From: Squalus acanthias
Taxonomy: Eukaryota
DNA: 64,000 nucleotides
Assembly (NCBI GenBank): GCA_030390025.1
Contig: CM059432.1
Coordinates: forward strand, 100,690,001-100,754,000
Reading direction: 5' to 3'
Shown: positions 1 through 56,462 of the stretch, piece by piece
Numbering within the stretch: the first letter of the stretch is position 1
Layout: each line of letters begins with the position of its first letter
Translations under genes and position numbers: made by a program
The notes under the pieces: generated by a model
What the model was told of the DNA's origin: nothing
The model's database searches: none
What the model saw: only the letters and a program-made list of their open reading frames with translations

Positions 1-576
1 TCTGCTCTATCACATTTTGTGTGGCAACATGGCTTTCATTGTATGCAGGCTGCGCACGTGTGGATAGCTCTTGTCACTCAGTAGCCACCTTTTGGTTTGC
101 TGTGATGGTTCAAATGCAGATGCCACAGCGGACTGCTGCAGAATGAAGGCATCTTAACAGATGCCAGGATATCGGGCATTGACCTGCGTGATTTGCTTTC
201 TATGGTAGCACACCAGCTGGACACTGAGGGAATGGAATCGCTTTCGGTTGCGGTACATCTCAGAGTTGACATGCTCCTCGAGTGCCGGGCTGCTGGCATG
301 GCACCCCGGTAGTGCCCCGCAGAGTTGTGGGCTTGGGCCTTCCCCTTTACTGAGGGGAAGAGCCCTTCCATGCAGGAGCTCTACATGGCCCAGTGCATAG
401 CACTGCAGAATGCACCACCCCGATATTCGGGGTTAGCTTTCTACGAAGGAAGTGGAGCGCTTGAATTAGCGCTCCACCTCCCTCTTGGGGTGCTAAAATT
501 GAAGTTAGCGATCGCCGGCACTATTTTTCGCCGGGTGCTAAATTTCGCACCCAGGCAATACCGAATTTTTCCCCCC
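1..576. mobile_element. Right portion of a non-autonomous PIF/Harbinger element (left boundary uncertain)
   Basis: Ends GGCAATACCGAATTTTTCCCCCC followed by TTA, the reverse complement of the left end of the 9379 Harbinger (GGGGGGAAAATTCAGTATCGCC). Shares the GGAGCGCTTGA.TTAGC motif with the 59621 element. Confidence 0.6.
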
Positions 577-850
577 TTAGTCTTTCATTGAGTTTGGTTG
601 GGAGCTGAACCTTTCAATCGCCACCAATGTAAAGTTGTACTGCCTCGATAAAGTAAACAAAGACCAGCAATTTGCCCCTTTCAATACCAATATCTGTTCA
701 AAGAACAATAATTATTTACTTGCATTGGATTTAATTACATGACACCAATAATCATGTGTTAAAATTGCACCATAAGCATTTCAACTGAGAAAATACATAA
801 TCATTTTGTTTTCATTAACAGGGGTTGTACTATTACATAACCAGAGACTA

Positions 851-1105
<255 letters not shown>

Positions 1106-1189
1106 CTAATTCTATGAGATTGATGCAGTATTAACAGCATTGTACAACCTGGGATATATCAAGACTGAGAAAACTGGGTTTACAATCTG

Positions 1190-1574
1190 TATTTGGTGGG
1201 CTCAAGCGAAGAACTCCTGCTCCTCCTGGCCTCACCAAAAAGAAATTAGACATTTCCTGAGCCGTTTTGTGAGCGGCCACCAGCGGTCCCTCAGAGGACC
1301 GTTGATTTAGCCGTTCACTGCCTGGTACAAATAAGAGCGTGTACAACTCACACTTCGCCCATTTGTAATGGAAAATCGGGGTCCTATGACTGGCGAAGGG
1401 CCACGATATACATATTTAAGCAGCTTCCCGGCTGTTTCAGGCGGGTGGCTGCTTGTCCATTTACAGGCCTGCCTGAAAATGGCATCAGGTGGGCCTATGG
1501 CATTCTCCGATTTTAAATTGCCGACCATCCATTTTTCAGACAAGAAACGGCGGTTGGCAGCTGAAAATCGCCCT
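1190..1574. mobile_element. Harbinger-type MITE fragment
   Basis: GC-rich block ending TGAAAATCGCCC. Its reverse complement resembles the left ends at 58676 and 49381. Confidence 0.45.
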
Positions 1575-2092
1575 TTGTTCTATGGTGAGTGAAATACAGT
1601 ATTTTAATGCAAACCTTTATAATGACAACAATGCGTTTGTGGGGCAGTGCAACTGATTTTAATTGAATTGCTGGTTGTAAAGTATGTACTATTTTAATGT
1701 ACAGTTGCCTATTTGCTCTCTGTTCAACTTGCCAAGTTGTTGCTCTTAACAATGTCAGTGCCGCAGGTACTTTAAGATAATAACTGCATATGAAGTTAAC
1801 GTATGAATAAACAACATGTTGCTAAAATATGTTGGGAATTTTCAATAAAAATTCACGATGAATTCTTCATTTTCCCACACCAGCCATTCTTGTGGGGTCT
1901 GAGTGAAGGTGGCAATTAGTGTTCATCGATGGTCAGTTTTGGCTGTGGGATCCCATCTGTTGAGAACCAGGCTTTTAAAATATAATGTTTCAATGAATTA
2001 TAATGCACTAAAGAGTAACCTTCCAATTAACACACAATTACAGCCACTTTGGATAGAGCTTTTCTTGCACAATATTGACAATACTACAGTAC

Positions 2093-2219
2093 CTGATAAT
2101 ATTTCCTGGGTCCATTTCGATTGTCCAGATGCACCGGAGATTATTGTCGTATGGGAAAGGGTAACCAGGGGACAGGATTCTTCCAGATGATTCACCTTTG
2201 AACTGGCCTCCACATTCGG
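2093..2219 (-). CDS. CSMD3: CSMD3 internal exon (N-terminal part of the next CUB domain, probably CUB8)
   Basis: tattAG|CC GAA TGT GGA...ATT ATC AG|GTactg. 127 nt encoding (A)ECGGQFKGESSGRILSPGYPFPYDNNLRCIWTIEMDPGNII(S). This frame is not in the ORF track and was read manually. Confidence 0.93.
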
Positions 2220-3474
2220 CTAATAGGGAAATAACACATCAGCTAACTTTTTGGTAACTATAACAGTTTTGGACTACAGAAAGGGTTTGGAAATGAGTTA
2301 CATTTAATGTTGAGTTTTTAAAGCAAAGTGTACTCATGCAAGTTTAAAAAAAATTGGGGCAAAAGGTGGTTAAAATGTTACTGGTCTCGGTATTGAAGTT
2401 GTTTCCTCAAAGACTGTGAAATAAAGCAATTTGTTAGCTTGTCTTGATAGTTAATAAATACCTCACACTCATCATGTTAGGAAGGCTCTAGTCCTGAGTG
2501 CTTGGCAAGGGCTGTCTGACATAGCCCCACCTCTCTGTTTGTGAACACAGAGATAAAAACAGAGACAGAAACACTCACTGACAGTTAGGTTTTTAGAACA
2601 GGAAGCTGGCTTGGGAGTCTTTTGTCACACTCAGAAGATTAGAATGCAGGAGGGCAATTAAAAGTTATTTTGTTTAATTCATGCAAGGCAATCCACTGAT
2701 GTAGGGTCGTGTAGTGTCTCCATTAATTTGTATGATTACATGAAGATACGTTACACTGACTGAATGAAGTAAGTCCAATCACTTGCTATGAAATAAAGCA
2801 GCTTAATGATTTATATATGGCCTCATCTTACTCAGTTCTTTCTACGTCCACCTTCAAAAAGATTAAGACATATGGAGGTCCATATGAAAGACAATAATAT
2901 CCAGCCCAGGTCACAAGGAGGTACCATCGTTACGCCCCCAGTTACATTATTGTATATTTAGATATTGGGCAGTACGACACACCCCTAAACATAAGGTGAT
3001 CAGGCCGCTTACGGGAGTTACCAGCCCGGCAGTATCCAAGAGGTTATCGAATGCAAGACCCCAATCTTGCAACAGTAACAGAATACCATAATCTAACATA
3101 ACTGAAACCTAAATAGTGACTGATTGCAAAGTATTAATGTATTATTAAAAAACTTTTTAAAAAGTGTGCTGCTTATTTTTAGCATTATTTTGCAATAGTG
3201 GTTCTAATTATTAATATTTCAATATCTTGAATCAAAGTACAAGAATAACACATAATAATCTGTTAATTTGACAATAAGAAACATGCATTCTCTTCAAAGG
3301 AGGTTATTGATCAGACAGACTCACATGAACAATTCTTAAGCAGAGTCATTTTTTACTGCTGTGTTGGCTACGACTGACACAATTAATCCCAAATACTTCT
3401 GTACTTGGCAAGTTGCAATTTTTATCTTTATTAGAACTCCATTAGTGTGGAGCAAACACCTTGTTATTTTAGTA

Positions 3475-5039
3475 ATAACAGAAAATGCTGGAAACACTCA
3501 GCGGGTCAGGCAGCATCCGTGGAGAGAGAAACAGAGTTAACGTTTCAGGTCTGTGACCCTTCGTCAGAACTGGAAAAAGTTAGAGATGTAACTGATTTTA
3601 AGCAGGTGCAGAGGCAGGGAAAGGGGGAGGGGAGGAAAGAACAAAAGGGACGGTCTGTGATAGGGTGGAAGGCAGGAGCGGTTAAATGTTGCAAATGGGG
3701 ATGGCAGAATCATCAACACCTGCCGCCTGAAAAAATAGGGGCAGAGGTTATGGTCTGAAATTGTTGAACTCGATGTTGAGTCCAGAAGGCTATAAAGTGC
3801 CTAATCGAAAGATGAGATGCTGTTCCTCGAGCTTACGTTGAGCTTCATTGGAACAGTGTAAGAGGCCGAGGACAGAGAGGTCAGAGTGGGAGTGGAGAGG
3901 AGAATTAAAGTGACAGGTGACTGGAAGCTCGGGGTCACCCTTATGGACTAAACGGAGGTGTTCCACAAAGCGGTCACCCAATCTGCGTTTGGTCTCCCCA
4001 ATGTAGAGGAGACCGCATCGTGAGCAGCAAATACAGTATACTAAATTGCAAGAAGTACAAGTAAATCGCTGTTTCACCTGAAAGGGGTGTTTGGGGCCCT
4101 GGACCGTGGGAAGGGAGGAGTTAAAAGGGCAGGTGTCGCATCTGCTGCACTTGCACGGGAAGGTACCGTGGGGAGGGGAGGGGAGGGGAGGGGCTGTTGG
4201 GGATGATTGAGGAGTAGACCAGGGTGTTGCAGAGGGAGCGGTCCCTTTGGAATGCTGAAAGGGGAGGGTAGGGGAAGATGCGTTTGGTGGTGGGATCACG
4301 CTGGAGGTGGTGGAAATGGCGGAAGATGATCCATTGAATGTGGAGGCTGGTGGGGTGAAAGGTGAGGACAAGGGGAACCTTATCGTCGTTCTGGGAGGGT
4401 GGGGATGGGGTGAGAGCAGAAATGCGGGAAATGGAACGGACACGGTCGAGGGCCGTGTCAACCACGGTAGAGGGGAATCCTCGGTTGTGGAAAAAGGAAG
4501 ACATATCGGAAGCACTAGGTGGCGGCGTCGGAACAGATGCAGCGGAGGCAGAGAAACTGGGAGAATGGGATAGAGTCCTTACAGGAAGCGGGATGGGAGG
4601 AAGTGTAGTCCAGGTAGCTGTGGGAGTCAGTGGGCTTATTGTGGATGTTTGTCGATAGCCTATCCCCAGAAATGGAGACAGAGAAGTCGAGGAAGGGAAG
4701 GGAAGAGTCAGAGATGAACCATGTGAAGGTGAGGGAAGGGTGGAAATTGGAAGCAAAGTGAATGAAATTTTCTAGTTCAGGGAGACAGCAGGAAACAACA
4801 CCAATACAGTTATCAATGTACCAGAAAAAGAGGTAAGGGAGGGGACCTGAGTAGGACTGGAACAAAGAATGTTCCACATATCCCACGAAAAGGCAGGCAT
4901 AGCTGGGGCCCATGTGGTTCCCATAGCAACACCTCTAATTTGGAGGAAGTGAGTGGAGTCAAAGGAGAAGTTGTTCAATGTGAGAACAAGTTCAGCCAGA
5001 CGGAGGAGGGTGGTGGTGGATGGGGACTGGTTGGGCCTG
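3475..5039 (-). mobile_element. Penelope-like retroelement, 5'-truncated and frameshifted (RT C-terminal part plus GIY-YIG endonuclease)
   Basis: Overlapping minus-strand ORFs. RT motifs FLQIRGVAMGT / MGPSYACLFVG / WYIDNC; GIY-YIG region NLVYCICCSRCGLLYIGETKRRLGDRFVEH; terminal sequence carries a hammerhead motif. Confidence 0.9.
3535..3571 (-). ncRNA. Minimal type I hammerhead ribozyme of the Penelope terminal repeat
   Basis: Minus strand reads AGTT-CTGACGA-AGGGTC ACA GACCT-GAAA-CGTT-AACT: CUGANGA and GAAA core boxes, helix II GGTC/GACC, helix I AGTT/AACT, and palindromic AACGTT in place of helix III. Confidence 0.75.
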
Positions 5040-11473: not shown

Positions 11474-12635
11474 TCATCTGAAGCGGTGTCTTATGAGGCG
11501 TTCACGAACTGCCCTTGCAGAGGCAACATTGAGCGCCTCCCTCCCACGTTGCTGCTGCTCATCCTCCTCTTCATCCTCCTCCTCTCCCTCTTCCTCCTCC
11601 TGAGGTGGTGCACCAATCCCTGGTGGCAAGGGCTGTGCCCTCAGAATTGCGAGGTTGTGAAGCATGCAGCACACAACAATGAAAAGCGATACTCGCTCAG
11701 GAGAGTACTGCAGGGCTCCTTCAGAGTGGTCAAGACACCGGAACCGTTGCTTTCAAGACGCCGATCGTCTGTTCAATGAGGTTCCTAGTGGCGCTATGGC
11801 TCTCATTGTATGCGAACTCAACAGGAGTGTTGGGGTTATGGAGCGGTGTCATCAGCCAGGTGCAGAGTGGATAACCCTTGTCCCCAAGGAGCCAGCCACG
11901 AGGATGATACGGTGGGTGGAAGAGGTCTGGGACACCAGTCTGGTGCAGGATGGATGCATCGTGGCTGATGCCAGGATAGCAGGCATTGACAGTGAGGATG
12001 CGCTGTCTGTGGTTGCACACCAACTGGATGTTGAGAGAGTGGAAGCATTTGCGGTTGTGGAAAACCTCTGCATTTTCATGAGGAGCCAGCAATGCCACAA
12101 GCGTGCAGTCAATGGCGCCCTGAACCATGGGGAAGCCCGCTATCCTAGCGAAGACACATGCACGTTCACGCTGTTTGTCTCGGTTCATGGGGAATGAGAT
12201 ATAGTCCCTTCTCCTTTGGTATAGAGCATTTGTGACCTCCCGGATGCAACAATGGACGGCAAACTGGGAGGTATGCGTAATATCCCCTGTTGAAGCCTGG
12301 AAGTAGCCGCTGGCATAGAAATTAAGAGCCATCGTCACCTTCACTGCCACCGACAGAGACGTCCTGATCCTGAGCTGAGGCTGAAGCTCTGGCTGTAGGA
12401 GGTGGCAGAGCTCTGTGACCATCTCCTTGCCGAAGCGCAGCCTTCTAAAACACTGCTCCTCGGACAAATGAATATAGGAGAAATGCTCCCGGAATATCCT
12501 GGGAGGGTAAGGTCTCCTGTGCAGAGGCCTGTTGGCCCTCCTCCCTCTGGCCACGTTTGCCACTCTCTCTCTGCACCTCTGCTGCCTCCGAACGTGAAGC
12601 TGGAGGACGAGGCCCCGTGTTAGTACAGCCCCCAT
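11474..12635 (-). pseudogene. Harbinger DDE transposase (HARBI1-like), frameshifted near 11750
   Basis: [44 protein letters not shown]. After a frameshift it continues as QRFRCLD..GALQYSP..VCCMLHN with an acidic tail ending at 11474. Confidence 0.9.
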
Positions 12636-16129: not shown

Positions 16130-17240
16130 AAAACTGAAGTCAATGGGAATCGGGGGGAAAACGCTCCACTGGCTGGAGGCATACCTAGCACAAAGGAAGA
16201 TGGTTGTGGTGGTTGAAGGTCAATCATCACAGCCCTAGGACATCACTGCAGGAGCTCCTCAAGGCAGCGTCCTAGGCCCAACCATCTTCAGCTGCTTCAT
16301 CAATGACCTTCCCTCCAACATAAGGTCAGAAATAGGGATGTTCGCTGATGACTGCACATTGTTCAGCGCCATTCACAACTCCACGGATAATGAAGCAGTC
16401 CATGCCCGCATGCAACTGGACCTGGACGACGTTCAGGCTTGGGCTGATAAGTGGCAGGTAACATTCGCGCCACAGAAGTGCCAGGCAATGACTATCTCCA
16501 ACAAGCAAGAGTCTAACCACCTCCATTTGACATTCAACGGCATTACCATCACCGAATCCCCCACCATCAACATCCTGGGGGTCACCATTGACCAGAAGCT
16601 TAACTGGACCAGCCACATAAATACTGTGGCAACAAGAGCAGGTCAGAGGCTAGGTATTCTGCGGCGAATGTCTCACCTCCTGACTCCCTAAAGCCTTTCC
16701 ACCATCTACAAAGCACAAGTAAGGAGTGTGATGGAATATTCTCCACTTGCCTGGATGAGTGCAGCTCCAACAACACTCAAGAAGCTTGACACCATCCAGG
16801 ACAAAGCAGCCTCTTGATTGGCACCCCATCCACCACCTTAAACATTCACTCCCTCCACCACCGGCGAACCGTGGCTGCAGGGTGTACCATCCACAAGATG
16901 CACTGCAGCAACTTGCCAAGGCTTCTTCGGCAGCACCTCCCAAACCCGCGACCTCTTCCACCTAGAAGGACAAGGGCAGCAGGCACATGGGAACACCACC
17001 ACCTCCAAGTTCCCTCCAAGTCACATACCATCCTGACTTAGAAGTATATCGCCAATCCTTCATCATCGCTGGGTCAAAATCCTGGAACTCCCTACCTAAC
17101 AGCACTGTGGGTGTACCTTCACCACACAGACTGCAGCGGTTCAAGAAGGCGGCTCACCACCACCTTCTCAAGGGCAATTGGGGATGGGCAATAAATGCTG
17201 GCCTTGCCAGCGACGCTCACATACCATAAACGAATAAAAC
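16130..17240 (+). mobile_element. 5'-truncated copy of the tRNA-headed APE-RT LINE family (CR1/Jockey group)
   Basis: QGSVLGPTIFSCFINDL, MFADDC, WADKWQVTF; 3' tail GGCAATAAATGCTGGCCTTGCCAGCG followed by an A-rich end. Confidence 0.9.
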
Positions 17241-25891: not shown

Positions 25892-28800
25892 TGGAGTTCA
25901 ATTCACCACGGCAGCTGGGGAATTTAAATTCAGTTAATTAAATAATCTGGAATAAAAAGCTAGTATCAGTAATGGTAACCATGAAACTATGAGATTGTCG
26001 TAAAAACCCATCTGGTTCACTAATGTCCATTAGGGAAGGAAATCTGCTGCCCTTACCTGGTCTGGCCTATATGTGCCTCCAGACCCACAGCAATGTGGTT
26101 GACTCTTAACTGCCCTCTGAAATGGTCTAGCAAGCCACTCAGTTGTAACAAACCGCTACGAAACACAATAATAAGAATGAAACCGGACGGACCACCTGGC
26201 ATCGACCTCGGCACCGGCTATAGACACGGCAATGGCACACCCAGCCCAATCAACCCTGCAAAGTCCTCCTCACCAACATCTGGGGACTTATGCCAAAATT
26301 GGGAGAGCTGTCCCACAGACTAGTCAAGCAACAGCCTGACATAGTCATACTCACATAATCATACCTTTCAGCAAATGTCCCAAACTCCTCCATCACCATC
26401 CCTGGATATGTCCTGTCCCACCGACAGGACAGACCCACCAGGGGTAGTGGTATACAGTCAGGAAGGAGTGGCCCTGGGAGTTCTCAACATTGACTGCGGA
26501 CCCCATGAAGTCTCATGGCTTCAGGGCAAGCATGGGCAAGGAAACCTTCTGCTGATTACCACCGTCCGCCCTCCCTCAGCTGATGAATCAGTACTCCTCC
26601 ATGTTGAACACCACTTGGAAGAAGCACTGAGAGTAGCAAGAGCTCAGAATGTACTCTGGGTGGGGGACTTCAATGTCCATCACCAAGAGTGGCTCGTTAG
26701 CACCACTACTGACCGAGCTGGCCGAGTTCTGAAGGACATAAATCCAGTCTGGGCCTGCGACAGGTGGTGAGAGATCCGACACGAGGGAAAAACCTACTTG
26801 ACCTCGTCCTCACCAATCTACCTGTCGCAGATGCATCTGTCCATGACAGTATTGGTAGCAGTGACCACCACACAGTAATTGTGGAGTCGAAGTCCCGTCT
26901 TCACACTGAGGACACCCTCCATCGTGTTTTGTGGCACTACCACCCTGCTAATTGGGATAGATTCAGAACAGATCTAGCAGCTCAAAACAGGGCATCCATG
27001 CGGCGCTGTGGGCCATCAGCAGCAGCAGAATTGTATCCCACCACAATCTGTAACCTCATGGCCCGGCATATCTCTCACTCTACCATTACCATCAAGCCAG
27101 GTGACCAACCCTGGTTTAATAAAGAGTGCAGAAGAGCATGCCTGGAGCAGCACCAGGTGTACCTAAAAGTTAGGTGCCAACCTGGGGATGCTGCAACACA
27201 GGGCTAAGCGATCCCACAATCAACGGATCAGATCAAAGCTCTGCAGTCCTGCCACATCCAGTCGTGAATGGTGGTGAACCATTAAACAACTAACGGGAGG
27301 AGGAGGCTCCATGAATATCCCCATCCTCAATGATGGTGGAGCCCAGCACGTGAGTGCAAAAGAAAAGGCTGAAGCGTTTGTAACCATCTTCAGCCAGAAG
27401 TGCCGAGTGGATGATCCAAATCAGCCTACTCCTGAGGTCCCCACCATCACAGAAACCAGTCTACAGCCAATTCGATTCACTCCATGTGATATCAAGATAT
27501 GGCTGAGCGCACTGGATACAGCAATGACTATGGGCCCCGACAACATCCCGGCTATCGTGCTAAAGACTTGTGCTCCAGAACTAACCACCCCTCTAGCCAA
27601 GCTGTTCCAGTACAGCTGCAACACTGGCATCTATCCGACAATGTGGAAAACTGCCCAGGTATGTCCTGTCCACAAAAAACAGGACAAATCCAATCCGGCC
27701 AATTACCGCCCCATCAGTCTACTCTCAATCATCAGCAAAGTGATGGAGGTATCATCGACAGTGCTATCAAGCGGCACTTACTCACCAATAACCTGCTCAC
27801 TGATGCCCAGTTTGGGTTCCGCCAAGACCACTCGGCTCTCGACCTCATTACAGCCTTGGTCCAAACATGGACAAAGGAGCTGAATTTCAGAGGTGAGATG
27901 AGAGTGACTGCTCTTGACATCAAGGTAGCATTTGACCGAGTGCGGCATCAAGGAGCCCTAGTAAAACTGAAGTCAATGGGAATCGGGGGTGGGGGGGGGG
28001 GTGAAATGCTCCACTGGCTGGAGTCATACCTAGCACAAAGGAAGATGGTTGTGGTGGTTGAAGGTCAATCATCACAGCCCCAGGACATTACTGCAGGAGT
28101 TCCTCAGGGCAGTGTCCTAGGCCCAACCATCTTCAGCTGCTTCATCAATGACCTTCCCTCCAACATAAGGTCAGAAATGGGGATGTTTGCTGATGACTGC
28201 ACAGTGTTCGTGCCATTCACAACTCCTCAGATAATGAAGAAGTCCATGTCCGCATGCAAAAAGAGCTGGACATCGTTCAGGCTTGGACTGATAAGTGGCA
28301 GGTAACATTCACGTCACAGAAGTGCCAGGCAATGACTATCTCCAACAAGCGAGAGTCTAACCACCGCCCCTTGACATTCAACGACACTACCATCGCCGAA
28401 TCCCCCACAATCAACATCCTGGGGGTCACCATTGACCAGAAACTTAACTGGACCAGCCATATAAATACTGTGGCAACAAGAGTAGGTCAGAGGCTAGGTA
28501 TTCTGCAGCGAGTGTCTCACCTCCTGACTCCCCAAAGCCTTTCCACCATCTACAAGGCACAAGTAAGGAGTGTGATGGAATACTCTCCACTTGCCTGGAT
28601 GAGTGCAGCTCCAACAACACTCAGGAAGCTCGACACCATCCAGGACAAAGCAGCCCGCTTGATTGGCACCCAATCCACCACCTTAAACATTCACTCCCTC
28701 CATCACCGGCGTACCGTGGCTGCAGTGTGTACCATCTACAAGATGCACTGCAGCAACTCATCAAGGCTTCTTCGGCAGCACCTCCCAAACTTGCGACCTC

Positions 28801-29073
28801 TTCCACCTAGAAGGACAAGGGCAGCAGGTGCATGTGAACACCACCATCTCCAAGTCACACACCATCCTGACTTGGAAACATATTGCCATTCCTTCGTCGC
28901 TGGGTCAAAATCCTGGAACTCCCTACCTAACAGCACTGTGGGAGTACCTTCACCACACGGACTGCAGCGGTTCAAGAAGGCGACTCACCACCACCTTCTC
29001 AAGGGCAACTAGGGATGGACAATAAATGCTGGCCTTGCCAGCGATGCCCACATCCCATAAACAAATAAAAAAA
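25892..29073 (+). mobile_element. Near full-length tRNA-headed APE-RT LINE (single ORF, decayed)
   Basis: Begins at a B-box remnant (GGAGTTCAATTC). APE motifs TNIWGL, WVGDFN, LLDLVL, SDH; RT motifs NYRPISLL, QFGFR, GVPQGSVLGP, FADD; A-rich tail. Confidence 0.9.
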
Positions 29074-29904
29074 GAAGTTCCACAGGAGCCCATGGGTACT
29101 TTGCGCAAATGGCCGTGCTCCATGTATGAGGGAACATAAGGATATCTCTGGACGGATAAATTAAGATGGTGTTCCTCATCCATAATTATCTTGTGAACCT
29201 ATTCACTGATTCCTGCTGGAATGTGTTCCTGGAATGGAGGTGGGGGGGTTGCGGGTGGGTGCATCATAGCTGAGCCAAATTCTGTGCTCATGCAACAGCC
29301 ACATGGGATCGTATTCCAGCAGTAGTCAGTGAATATTAATTTGGAGCAGGAACCCTTTCCTAAACCAGTGATTCTGAGGCAAATTGAAAAGTTCAAAAGT
29401 CCCTGCCACTGCATTGGCTGAGATTAGCCAACCCAGCACTTCCCTGGTCAGAATAGTATTTTCCACATCAGGAAGTTTACTTATCAACTGAGCCATTTAG
29501 AGAGCTGTAGAAAATTATTATTCAACACCATAGTACAAAACATATTCGTCATCTTACTTTTCCTTTGCTAAGCAACAAGAATCAGCAAATTTTTTCAATC
29601 AATACTATTCACTAAAATAAGCAACTGCATTAAAAATCACAATTTAAATCCATTTTGTTCATGAAACAATAAAATGGAAAGTCTGTGGAATTGAATTTGA
29701 AGTGATTGCTTTTTATTTCTGTGCCGCTCAAACTCCAGCCAATCAAACTTCATAGTATTACTCATCAGGGAATCAGCACCATTGAGATAAGTTTCTTTTC
29801 TTTCTGTCTAGTTTCATGTCACACATTCGAGATGCTGTTCTGTCAGAGGGAAAATCTGAAAGGTAATGACGGAAACTTCTGTTACAAGAAAAATAAACAG
29901 CAGT

Positions 29905-40232: not shown

Positions 40233-40333
40233 GTAACATAGGCTGCTAGATACATGTCAGTACTCATGGTTCCTGAGATGATTTCAGTCATGTAAAAAGG
40301 AGATGTTTAGCTAAAAGATCAGAATTGCGGGAA

Positions 40334-42849
40334 TGGTACCATAGTGGTAATGTCACTGGGCTAGTAATCAAAAGGCCTGGACCAATGATCCAGAGACATG
40401 AGTTCAAATCCCACCACGGCAGCTGGGGAATTTAAATTCAGTTAATTAAATAAATCTGGAATAAAAAGCTAGTATCAGTAATGGTAACCATGAAACTATC
40501 GGATTGTCGTAAAAACCCATCTAGTTCACTAATGTCCTTTAGGGAAGGAAATCTGCCGTCCTTACCTGGTCTGGCCTATATGTGACTCTTAACTGCCCTC
40601 TGAAATGGCCTAGCAAGCCACTCAGTTGTAACAAACCACTACGAAACACAGTAAGAATGAGACCGGACGGACCACCAGGCATCGACCTCGGCACCGACTA
40701 CGGACATGGCAATGGCACACCCAGCCCAGTCGACCCTGCAAAGACTTGTGCCAAAATTGGGAGAGCTGTCCCACAGACTAGTCAAGCAACAGCCTGACAT
40801 AGTCATACTCACAGAATCATACCTTTCAGCCAATGTCCCAAACTCCTCCATCACCATCCCTGGGTTCGTCCTGTCCCATCGACAGGACAGACCCACCAGA
40901 GGCAGTGGTATACAGTCGGGAAGGAGTGGCCCTGGGAGTCCTCAACATTGACTCCGGACCCCATGAAGTCTCATGTCTTCAGGGCAAGCATGAGCAAGGA
41001 AACTTCCTGTTGATTACCTCATACCGCCCTCCCTCAGCTGATAAATCAGTACTCCTCCATGTTGAACACCATTTGGAAGAAGCACTGAGAGTAGCAAGAG
41101 CTCAGAATGTACTCTGGGTGGGGGACTTCCATGTCCATCACCAAGAGTGGCTCGGTAGCACCACTACTGACCGAGCTGGCTGAGTCCTGAAGGACATAGC
41201 TGCCAGTCTGGGCCTGCGACAGGTGGTGAAAGAACCAACACGAGGGAAAAACCTACTTGACCTCGTCCTCACCAATCTACCTGTCGCAGATGCATCTGTC
41301 ATGACAGTATTGGTAGCAGTGACCACCGCACAGCAAAGGTTATGGGCCCCGACAACATCCCGGCTATCATGCTGAAAACTTGTGCTCCAGAACTGTTCTC
41401 TAGCCAAGCTGTTCCAGTGCAGCTACAACACTGGCATCTATCCGACAATGTGGAAAACTGCCCAGGTATGTACTGTCCACAAAAAGCAGGACAAATCCAG
41501 TCCGGCCCATCAGTCTACTCTCAATCATCAGCAAAGTGATGGATGGTGTCGTCGACAGTGGTACCAAGCAGCACTTACTCACCAATAGCCTGCTCACGGA
41601 TTCCCAGTTTGGGTTCCGCCAAGACCATTCGGCTCCCGACCTCATTTCAGCCTTGGTCCAAACATGGACAAAGGAGCTGAATTCCAGAGGTGAGGTGAGA
41701 GTAACTGCCTTTGATATCAAGGCAGCATTTGACTGGGTGTGGCATCAAGGAGCCCTCGTAAAATTGAAGTCAATGGGAATCGGGGGGGAAAACGCTCCAC
41801 TGGCTGGAGTCATACCTAGCACAAAGGAAGATGGTTGTGGTGGTTGAAGGTCAATCATCACAGCCCCAGGACATTGCTGTAGGAGTTCCTCAGAGCAGTG
41901 TCCTAGGCCCAACCACCTTCAGCTGCTTCATCAATGACCTTCCCTCCAACATAAGGTCAGAAATGGGGATGTTCGCTGATGACTGCACAGTGTCCAGTGC
42001 CATTTGCAACTCCTCAGATAATGAAGCAGTCCATTCCCGCATGCAAAAAGACCTGGACAACGTTTAGGCTTGGGCTGATAACTGTCAGGTAACATTCGCA
42101 CCACAGAAGTGCCAGGCAATGACTATCTCCAACAAGCAAGAGTCTAACCGCCGCCCCTAGACATTCAAAGGCATTAGCATCGCCGAATCCCCCACCATCA
42201 ACATCCTGGGGGTCACTATTGACCAGAAACTTAACTGGACCAGCCAGATAAATACTGTGGCAACAAGAGCAGGTCACAGGCTAGGTATTCTGCAGCGAGC
42301 GTCTCACCTCCTGACTCCCCAAAGCCTTTCCACCATCTACAAGGCGGTGTACTCATAAGGAGTATGATGGAATACTCTCCACTTGCCTGGATGAGTGCAG
42401 CTCCAACAGCACTCAAGAAGCTCGACACCATCCAGGACAAAGCAGCCCGCTTGATTGGCACCCCATGCACCACCTTAAACATTTACTCCCTCCACCACCG
42501 GCGCACCGTGGCTGCAGTGTGTACCATCTACAAGATGCACTGCAGCAACTCACCAAGGCTTCTTCGGCAGCACCTCCCAAACCTGCGGCCTCTACCACCT
42601 AGAAGGACAAGGGCAGCAGGCTTATGGGAACACCACCAAGTTACACACCATCCTGACTTGGAAATATATCGCCGAACTTTCATCGTCGCTGGGTCAAAAT
42701 CCTGGAACTCCCTACCTAACAGCACTGTGGGAGTACCTTCACCACACGAACTGCAGCGGTTCAAGAAGGCGGCTCACGACCACCTTCTCAAGGGCAACTA
42801 GGGATGGACAATAAATGCTGGACTTGCCAGCGATGCCCACATCCCATAA
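40334..42849 (+). mobile_element. tRNA-headed APE-RT LINE with intact 5' end and an internal deletion of about 0.65 kb
   Basis: A box TACCATAGTGG (40337-40347) and B box GAGTTCAAATCC (40400-40411), then APE (VILTESYL, WVGDF) and RT (QFGFR, FADD). Deletion junction near 41333 relative to the 25892 copy. Confidence 0.9.
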
Positions 42850-53039: not shown

Positions 53040-53610
53040 TAGTATTCTGCGGCGAGTGTCTCACGTCCTGACTCCCCAAAGCCTTTCCACCATCTACAAG
53101 AAGTGTGATGGAATACTCTCCACTTGCCTGGATGAGTGCAGCTCCAACAACACTCAAGAAGCTCGACACCATCCAGGACAAAGCAGCCCACTTGATTGGC
53201 ACCCCATCCACCACCTTAAACATTCACTCCCTCCACCACTGGCGTACCGTGGCTGCAGTGTGTACCATCTACAAGATGCACTGCAGCAACTCGCCAAGGC
53301 TTCTTCGGCAGCACCTCCCAAACCCGCGACCTCTTCCACCTAGAAGGACAAGGGCAGCAGGCGCATGGGAACACCACTACCTCCAAGTTGCCCTCCAAGT
53401 CACACACCATCCTGACTTGGAAATGTATCGCCGATCCTTCATCAACGCTGGGTCAAAATCCTGGAACTCCCTACCTAATAGCACTGTGGAAGTACCTTCA
53501 CCACACGGACTGCAGCGGTTCAAGAAGGCGGCTCACCACCACCTTCTCAAGGGCAACTAGGGATGGGCAATAAATGCTGGCCTTGCCAGCGACACCCACA
53601 TCCCATAAAC
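53040..53610 (+). mobile_element. 3' fragment of the tRNA-headed APE-RT LINE family
   Basis: MEYSPLAWMSAAPTTLKKLDTIQDKAA...HLLKGN* and the same 3' tail. Confidence 0.88.
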
Positions 53611-53699
53611 GTATATTTTTTTTTAAAGTGAACGATAATCCTGTGCTCTAAGTCCAATTGAAAAGCCAATCATTGACAGAACACTCGTGTTCTGTCTAC

Positions 53700-54282: not shown

Positions 54283-56462
54283 GGGCTGGATTTTGTCAAT
54301 GGGGACGTGATGGAGGCGGGACTCCCACTTTTTGGGTTGTAGTCCTGCCTCCATCGACTTGTGGCCAACCCACTCGATTTTCCCTTGAAAGTGAGCAAGG
54401 GGCCTCCATTTCTGCTGAAGCCACAGGGGAAGCACTACATAGGAGCACGCGTAAGAGGAAGATAAAGCACAATTAGTCACACGGGCAGTCACTTGGGTGT
54501 TTTTTTGTGTTTAATAATTAAATGCCATCCCTTTGTGAATATATTAAACTCTGGTGATGGCAAACTGTTGACGTTATGGCCTCTGTGATTTCGGTTTTGG
54601 AAGTTCCACATTGCGGCCTCAGCGAGACTTGCTTGGTCAGGTTGGTGGTCAGAGTGAGAGAAAGCCAGAGAATCATGCCCATTGTCTATCTTGTGCTAAG
54701 AAGGAGCCAAGCACATGTGCTAGAATGGGCAGCCTAAGCAAATCTGGCCAAGATGAGTGCATTCCTTGCATTCCGGCCAGCAATGTGCTCACGTGCTGCT
54801 GCTGGTTAATGCGCCTCCGTTCGGTCATCATTCTCCTCCTCCTTCTCTTCATCCGAGGAGGCTATGTACTGAGCCACTTGCTCCTCAGGAAGCTGCAAGC
54901 CACGATGCCGTGCGATGTTGTGCAGTGCACAGCAGACCATGACCATTCTGGAGACCCTGGCTGCTGAGTACTGCAGGGCTCCACCTGATCGGTCAAGGCA
55001 TCTGAATCGCATCTTCAGCAAGCCGATGGTTTGTTCGATGATGGACCTGGTCGAAATGTGGCTGGCGTTGTTGCGCTCCTCAGCTTCGTTCGCTGGCCTC
55101 CTGATCGGCGTCATTAGCCACGTCGTCAGGGGGTAGCCCTTGTCTCCAAGTAGCCATCCGTTAAGTTGGTTTGGCGGCTTGAAGAGCGGAGGCACACTAG
55201 AGTTCTGCAGGAGGAACGAGTCATGGCAACTGCCGCAGTACTTGGCATAAACATGCAAAATCTCCTTCTTGTGGTTATACACCAGCTGTACATTGAGGGA
55301 GTGGAAGCCCTTGCGGTTGACAAAAATAGCTGGGCTGTGATGGGGTGCCCTCAGGGCCACATGTGTGCAGTCTATGACGCCTTGCACCATTGGCATGCCT
55401 GCCATATTTGCGAATCCAACCGCACACACGGTTATACTTGCTTGATCCATTGAAAAGTTTATGTAATTGTGCGCCTTTGTGAAGAGGGCATCGGTAAACT
55501 GCGTGATGTAACTGCGAGCAGCCGACTGGGAGATGCACCTGATGTCTGCTGATGATCCCTGGAAGGAGCCTGAAGCAAAAAAGTTGAGTGCGGTGGTGAC
55601 TTTGACAGCCACTGGTAAGGGGTGTCCACCGGATCCTCTGGGCTCCAGGTGTTGGTGCAGCATTGCGCAGATGTCTCCGACAACTTCTCGTGAAAGTCTC
55701 AGCCTCCTTTGGCACTGCTGCTCACTCATGTTAAGGAAGCTCATCCTCTGTCTGTAAATCCTGAGAGGAGGGTATCTCCTGTGGTGACATGCTGCCATGC
55801 GCCGGCGCCTTCTGCCTTGTGCACCATCAGGTGGGTGAGCAGCAGGTTGTCGCTCCTGCTTGCTGTTCTGCCTGGTTCTGCTGCTGCCGTGGCTGCTCCT
55901 CATCCGAATCTGAGGTCCATGATGAAAGGAAATAAATGTTTCCCATGCTGCTGATAGATACTTCCGTTGGGGAAGCGTTCAGTCCAAGTGGGAGAGGGTT
56001 TTCCCAGGAGGTACCAAAGTAGATAGATCTCAGCTGCACCACCTCCGACTTCAGTAGGCCTGGAAAAAGTGCTCAAAGACCTGTGGAAAAAAAGTTCTGC
56101 CACCTGCAACTCATTCCTGTTGAAAGCTCCGTTTTTATGGTGGAGCTGCAGCTGTGAGGAGGTCAGCCACTTATCAACCCGCCAGGATTAGCTGGTGTGG
56201 TTTAGGAGCAGCGTGCAACACGCTGTAAATGTGGCAAAATAACAAAGGCCGGGGGAAATTGGATTATAGAGGCCTTTGAGCGCTTCTTAAGGGTCTTAAC
56301 TGCCTATTCTGCTTCTTGGAGGCGGGACCGAATCACACTCGTGAAGCCCGCCTCCGGCAAAGTTGCGCGGAGGCGGGGTTCCGAACCCACACTCAATTTT
56401 TGCAATTTTACCAACTGTCCCGCCTCCAAACTCGCCTCCTCAGGGTTGGTAAAATCACCCCC
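54283..56462. mobile_element. PIF/Harbinger element carrying only a transposase
   Basis: TIR-like ends GGGCTGGATTTT..GGAGGCGGGAC and GTCCCGCCTCC..AAAATCACCCCC enclose the transposase ORF. Confidence 0.8.
54806..55903 (-). CDS. Harbinger DDE transposase (HARBI1-like), uninterrupted 365-codon ORF
   Basis: [67 protein letters not shown]. The true N-terminus may be MGNIYFLSS at about 55946 in another frame. Confidence 0.85.

Follow-up and report, generated by a model that had tools for sequence, protein, structure and literature searches.

In the 64-kb window (the whole stretch of Squalus acanthias DNA analyzed here), we characterized a LINE whose sense strand is nearly free of T-clusters. We consider end-to-end transcription of active source copies by Pol III (RNA polymerase III) the most likely reason, with a probability of roughly 0.55 as judged from sequence comparisons. 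That the element is, more broadly, an autonomous coding retrotransposon, which makes a 3.3-kb Pol III RNA from an internal tRNA promoter, has it translated without cap or AUG, and has been kept across sharks and rays at several percent of the genome, seems to us an evenly balanced proposition. The Pol III reading most simply takes in the conserved internal promoter, the sharp start, the purged terminators, the missing AUG, and the origin of a SINE by deletion. The family itself is already known, its promoter design is undescribed, and the T-run feature is real. The copies and parts that bear on these points are as follows.

16130..17239, plus strand: 5′-truncated copy, 3′ 1.1 kb, no T4
25892..29076, plus strand: focal Zenon copy, 5′-truncated and decayed (BLAST: majority positions 71-3288, 93% identity)
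25892..25904, plus strand: what is left of the tRNA head, a mutated B-box remnant; truncation has removed the A box
25905..26148, plus strand: 5′ UTR, common to the derived SINE; the majority 5′ UTR has no window with T at 4 of 5 positions
26149..29012, plus strand: single APE-RT ORF (972 codons in the majority sequence), frameshifted in the focal copy
26177..26179, plus strand: out-of-frame ATG opening a 48-codon uORF (26177-26323) that overlaps the main ORF start
Near 26261, plus strand: start of the APE domain; first in-frame Met at 26998; FADD motif at 28186-28197
26927..26930, plus strand: sole T4 run of the focal copy, a private post-insertion mutation (1 of 55 copies at the site)
28768..28772, plus strand: TTCTT, found in each of the four window copies and the sole terminator-like motif that the majority sequence contains
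29012..29055, plus strand: 3′ stem-loop with AATAAA in an internal loop (the majority 3′ end is predicted to fold at −25.4 kcal/mol); likely RT recognition site
29056..29076, plus strand: 3′ end and short A-tail
40330..42849, plus strand: second copy with complete head, internal deletion of majority 1039-1724, no T4
40330..40421, plus strand: tRNA-Thr(AGT)-derived head (A box 40337-40347, anticodon 40363-40365, B box within 40399-40410)
53042..53615, plus strand: 5′-truncated copy, 3′ 0.6 kb, no T4

By its sequence, the focal repeat is a decayed copy of the elasmobranch CR1-Zenon LINE family, as far as that family is set out in the main text and supplement of Stuart 2026 (PMC13343379). Zenon elements of sharks and rays are described there as LINEs of ≈3.3 kb without ORF1, with APE and RT domains and a poly-A tail (Stuart et al. 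2026, PMC13343379), and are named SquAca_Zenon-1/-2/-3, CarCar_, RhiTyp_, ScyCan_, and HypSab_Zenon-1; a CR1-Zenon-like LINE also appears in bioRxiv 10.1101/443036. Our element has a single ORF with APE and RT domains and no ORF1 (Pfam Exo_endo_phos_2 and RVT_1), and short A-tails occur at most of the LINE 3′ ends listed. A motif search returned six rows of the published supplement, all of them elasmobranch Zenon, and by eye the first 400 nt of SquAca_Zenon-1 match our majority sequence almost letter for letter. The RT is 36% identical to a lepidopteran RT and ≈30% identical to the CR1s of the same genome. In the main text of Stuart 2026, the terms "tRNA," "Pol III," "polymerase III," and "start codon" have no matches, so the tRNA head, the missing AUG, and the avoidance of T-runs are undescribed there.

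The majority sequence was built from 49 copies (53 were aligned, and four rearranged ones, L048 and L054-L056, were left out) and comprises 3289 nt with 19.5% T, no T4, seven TTT, and 45 AAA+ runs. Majority rule dropped a short variable segment of the 5′ UTR that is present in the focal copy and brings no T-cluster. The focal copy also carries a G-run expansion within its RT region (27985-28003). Across 39 random stretches, the family accounts for 17,593 of 390,000 bp (≈4.5% of the sampled DNA). Contigs from four sequencing runs cover all 30 bins and include head-to-tail joints, although contigs cannot show starts or the polymerase. Neither the viral contigs nor a single-protein metagenome scan yielded relatives.

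The earlier note had drawn attention to the rarity of TTTT on the sense strand, and direct counts bear this out: T4 is absent from 40334-42849, 16130-17239, and 53040-53615 and occurs once in 25892-29073, at the private site 26927-26930. Its statement that TTT and AAAA runs are both common holds for the A runs (A4+ runs number 14 in the focal copy, 12 in 40334-42849, four in 16130-17239, and one in 53040-53615) but not for TTT, which is scarce (10 TTT+ against 50 AAA+ runs in 25892-29073). The note had further proposed counting T4 against codon-shuffled nulls, and this count gave no significant result. The ORF contains no T4 where 1.8 are expected under synonymous permutation (P = 0.11) and 1.6 under permutation of third bases (P = 0.17); the corresponding values are 3.0 (P = 0.05) for a base shuffle and 1.1 (P = 0.31) for a dinucleotide shuffle, and for the whole element the absence has P = 0.02 and 0.22 under these two shuffles. 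TTTT alone is thus a weak test that is not significant under codon nulls; with so few runs expected, the statistic is too low in power. Runs of TTT or longer are depleted (5 against 11.3, P = 0.004; 5 against 14.3, P = 0.002).

Human Pol III also terminates partially at T3VT, TVT3, T2VT2, T3VT2, and T2VT3, with 15% termination at T2CT2 (TTCTT) and none at an isolated T3, according to the relevant results of Orioli 2011 (PMC3141230). A T-cluster, taken here as four T in five nucleotides, covers T4 and the T3VT, TVT3, and T2VT2 terminators of that study (PMC3141230). As in a Pol III unit, 3277 nt of the element contain no T4 and a single weak TTCTT. The ORF has one T-cluster where 5.8 are expected (P = 0.008), and clusters of A, C, and G are present in normal numbers; the depletion is confined to the sense strand and to T. 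Over the whole element, one cluster compares with 7.3 expected when the UTRs are dinucleotide-shuffled and the ORF codon-shuffled (P = 0.002), with 6.8 under a dinucleotide shuffle (P = 0.005), and with 12.2 under a base shuffle. T-clusters were among 18 patterns that we scanned before the motif set of Orioli 2011 was known to us, and correction of the whole-element test for these 18 gives 0.002 x 18 = 0.03. A comparison of shared with private variants that create T-runs showed no difference (Fisher P = 0.26-1.0, at low power). The majority sequences of older subfamilies likewise lack T4, but the 29-95 sites at which they differ give too little power; a single lineage supplies one data point only. 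The extended terminator test offers moderate, specific support for Pol III read-through. Selection for readability by Pol III, as proposed in the earlier note, is accordingly backed by the depletion of terminator-type clusters (P = 0.002-0.008) and not by T4 alone, and an effect of UU is possible.

That effect underlies the strongest alternative, which we regard as unlikely, though a serious contender: a Pol II transcript that avoids UU (and UA), for example through escape from RNase L, other U-sensing decay, or processing signals, with the head as a captured passenger or enhancer. The missing T-runs would then follow from UU avoidance. RNase L prefers to cleave at UU and UA, and both TT (74 against 90, z = −4.2, ratio 0.82) and TA (91 against 110) are depleted. 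Plain UU avoidance remains a rival because, once the TT count of the ORF is held fixed, the clusters become borderline (P = 0.07) and the numbers of T3 and T4 unremarkable (P = 0.41 and 0.46). T pairs with a gap (T.T and T..T) show no depletion. It also fits that OAS and RNase L exist in cartilaginous fish, as stated in part of PMC1845163, and, for a Pol II transcript, that Zenons are poly-A tailed (main text of PMC13343379) and that AATAAA lies near the 3′ end. The cluster depletion nevertheless outlasts the dinucleotide shuffle of the whole element, and in the five other LINE families from this genome the TT ratio is 0.93-1.00. The boxes are, moreover, kept in five species (first 400 nt of the published supplement), and the ORF has no early AUG, neither of which favors a Pol II transcript.

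We compared the element with LINEs that lack the head. As the earlier note had stated, neighboring CR1 copies do contain sense-strand T-runs: the CR1/L2 pieces in the window carry one to seven T4 each (7 in 2412 nt, 3 in 693, 2 in 834, and 1 in 396). The headless controls from the same genome comprised an RTE (20 copies) together with one L2 family and three of CR1, each represented by 30 copies. A first CR1 control, assembled from mixed fragments of 80% mean identity, had looked as depleted (T3 P = 0.003) and was replaced by the three clean families (98%). Against codon nulls, neither T3 nor T4 is depleted in L2 or in two of the CR1s. The third CR1 is mildly depleted in T3 (ratio 0.76) and T4 (4 against 8.5, ratio 0.47, P = 0.03), with P = 0.01-0.03 across these two, and in clusters (17 against 24.9, P = 0.012); this family (L350-L379) shows mild depletion of TT and T4 against codon nulls (P = 0.002-0.03). 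The RTE, which has a tandem-repeat 5′ end without A or B boxes, contains 16.7% T and one T4, at the last of its 1085 codons (P = 0.13; TT ratio 0.98, T3 ratio 0.88), which means that near-absence of T4 needs no tRNA head. This RTE (L210-L229) is young; its 5′ array of tandem monomers is followed by a TATA-like motif, its T content is ≈16%, and its sole T4+ run sits at the stop codon. The comparison with headless relatives that the earlier note had suggested therefore divides: the RTE is nearly T4-free, yet T-clusters are depleted in Zenon and not in RTE, L2, or two of the three CR1s, with mild depletion in the third. All five headless LINEs keep 9-22 T-clusters.

A wider comparison used 63 related LINE ORFs, each an RT ORF of at least 400 codons, from 80 metagenome loci. 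Their relationship is distant, with 28-41% identity among the 12 for which it was measured, and they were chosen by RT ORF and not by Zenon assignment; the closest homologues of the element protein are 44-47% identical. None of the 63 lacks T4, and regression on their T content leads us to expect 3.4 T4 (P = 0.035) and 17 T3 (P = 0.0009) in the shark ORF. Its TT, T3, and T4 ratios lie below those of all 63 under three nulls, with one to six relatives having equally low T4 z-scores. The cluster ratio is 0.17, compared with 0.98 +/- 0.12 (minimum 0.66) in the relatives, two of which have an equally low z-score, and the regression expects 12.1 clusters where one is seen (P = 7e-5). The same regression fits the controls (RTE 9 against 9.3, L2 22 against 25, and the three CR1s 17-18 against 13-22), and the RTE, lower still in T, provides a check on the extrapolation.

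These comparisons make it quite improbable that the pattern reflects chance and composition, namely that a T-poor (≈19%), Phe-poor ORF with C-ending codons will often be free of T4 and that the rest is one lineage examined with several statistics. Only 1.1-3.0 T4 are expected in the ORF under the four nulls, the RTE is nearly T4-free, and 18 patterns were scanned; even so, the cluster depletion survives both the 18-pattern correction and the regression, and the still more T-poor RTE has its expected number of clusters. The Phe content of the element protein is indeed low (1.9% against a mean of 3.45%), and 4 of 81 homologues are equally low. The metagenomic homologues P0035, P0039, P0041, and P0049, at 1.6-1.8%, are as Phe-poor.

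The proposed promoter lies in the tRNA-derived head. The earlier note had called the focal LINE tRNA-headed, which is correct for the family, with a full head at 40330, but not for the focal copy, which starts at the B box and is missing the A box. A box scan, run with the A- and B-box consensus, found both boxes in the head. ARAGORN at a lowered threshold of 80% recognized a tRNA-Thr(AGT) in two of three sequences, namely the majority sequence and a single copy; at its default setting it found no tRNA in the window, and an Rfam search gave no match at the head. The anticodon arm is tandemly duplicated at 40356-40393, lengthening the spacing between the A and B boxes. Each of the 20 stretches selected by the head continues into the LINE body, and of the 45 copies extending into the 5′ region, 32 begin no more than 6 nt from +1 (≈20 of the 45 were head-selected). 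By eye, 20 of 22 exact starts have G at −1 and three have a second G at −2, a pattern that gives no sign of a variable cap-derived G. The head is also present on an old copy at 70-77% BLAST identity. One old full-length headed copy, ≈71% identical (L269:1926-7815), has a young full-length copy inserted inside it.

In the first 400 nt given in the supplement of PMC13343379, seven elasmobranch Zenon rows from five species have the same head and no T4 by eye, whereas the hagfish and coelacanth Zenon rows have no such head and contain T4 runs. Among the metagenome relatives, ARAGORN on 60 of the 80 loci returned one minus-strand tRNA only; a box-scan match in one of the 63 (L151) lies among T-runs and was set aside as chance by its appearance. 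Ribozymes cut exact 5′ ends for some other LINEs, and by analogy a host Pol II read-through RNA could gain its 5′ end through an RNase P-type cut at the tRNA-like head, leaving it uncapped and AUG-less without Pol III; although the 5′ end falls at the tRNA +1/−1 position and the D, anticodon, and T arms are still foldable, we consider this very improbable, as ARAGORN does not recognize the head at its default threshold or at 95%, its acceptor strands are unpaired by inspection, and the T-cluster depletion would be left unexplained.

Returning to the Pol III reading, we found that the 972-codon ORF of the majority sequence has no AUG before codon 286; in all 32 long related ORFs, a Met occurs no more than 166 codons from where the stop-to-stop frame starts. 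In the APE region, nonsynonymous and synonymous variants number 5:9 when shared and 338:130 when private (P = 0.006), and in the rest of the ORF 24:32 and 1253:355 (P = 3e-8). Shared and private variants reveal no constraint of this kind in the N-terminal 37 codons. Because APE is under selection despite lying upstream of the first Met, the endonuclease is evidently translated although no in-frame AUG precedes it. The uORF start is ATG in 18 of 23 young copies and ATA in 15 of 21 older ones, and visual inspection of the published supplement showed the same ATG in Zenon-1 rows from five species.

The head is of the tRNA-derived kind that characterizes SINE2 elements. The element is itself neither short nor non-coding, with 3.3 kb and an ORF under purifying selection, and only its derivative is SINE-sized. 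This abundant ≈450-nt SINE consists of LINE positions 1-316 joined to 3176-end (the last 114 nt), has no T-clusters where 2.5-2.9 are expected (P about 0.045), and is presumed to be a Pol III unit. The SINE majority sequence is ≈84% identical to the young LINE head (L089:865-1260, L180-L209). A T-run followed by an A-run at the 3′ end was considered as a built-in terminator and rejected: 16 of 63 LINE tails have at least three T, compared with 48 of 202 A6+ runs preceded by T in random DNA. T-runs in the LINE tails show no trend with age. In the random stretches (L061-L099), T4A4 occurs 78 times and A4T4 25 times, a genome-wide excess of T-runs followed by A-runs.

Under the Pol III reading, TFIIIC would bind the A and B boxes of the head, and Pol III would initiate there and run on into the flank, ending where it first meets a T-run. 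Translation of the uncapped RNA would begin at a non-AUG start, and the element protein would reverse-transcribe the RNA that encodes it, beginning from the 3′ stem-loop and A-tail. A source copy that gained a T-cluster would give a truncated RNA without the 3′ stem-loop, which would not be copied, and terminators would thereby be purged.

Known systems share parts of this design, to the extent that the relevant sections of the cited papers describe them. Lepidopteran Zenon and its SIDE Persaeus (PMC6740152) resemble the shark pair: the Zenon is ≈3.3 kb long and ends in poly-A, and a short derivative with an internal deletion retains both ends. Persaeus, however, lacks both tRNA homology and a Pol III promoter (PMC6740152), whereas the shark derivative has both boxes. 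Bov-tA and CoeSINE4 (Kojima 2018, PMC5786205) combine a tRNA head, a LINE 5′ UTR, and a LINE 3′ end, as the 450-nt shark SINE does; there, however, only the non-coding derivative is headed, and Pol II is assumed to transcribe the parent LINE (PMC5786205), whereas in the shark the coding parent is headed. The TRIMp3 elements Cassandra, Helenus, and Ajax (PMC10886601) are also retrotransposons with Pol III promoters derived from small RNAs, but they are non-autonomous LTR elements of 311-1263 bp whose autonomous partners are argued to need Pol II (PMC10886601).

Because weak processivity of Pol III is stated to limit SINE length (PMC10886601) and Pol III RNAs are stated to be generally unsuited to translation (PMC6023835), in the parts of those papers that treat the subject, the prior for a Pol III mRNA is low and the result would matter. 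A search confined to the open literature found no Pol III-transcribed or tRNA-headed autonomous LINE. The prevailing view assigns LINEs to Pol II and SINEs to Pol III, and regards short non-coding RNA as all that Pol III makes. If the Pol III reading is true, a natural 3.3-kb Pol III mRNA would overturn this split for a major vertebrate repeat, the divide between LINEs and SINEs would be blurred, SINEs would have a direct route of origin, in which a headed LINE simply undergoes deletion, and the 300-nt 5′ UTR would be expected to hold an initiation element that needs neither cap nor AUG.

Elsewhere in the window, two ORFs encode DDE_Tnp_4 (Harbinger-type) transposases (11730-12635 and 54806-55978, both on the minus strand), and a weak GIY-YIG match at 3790-4578 (minus strand) is probably a Penelope element.
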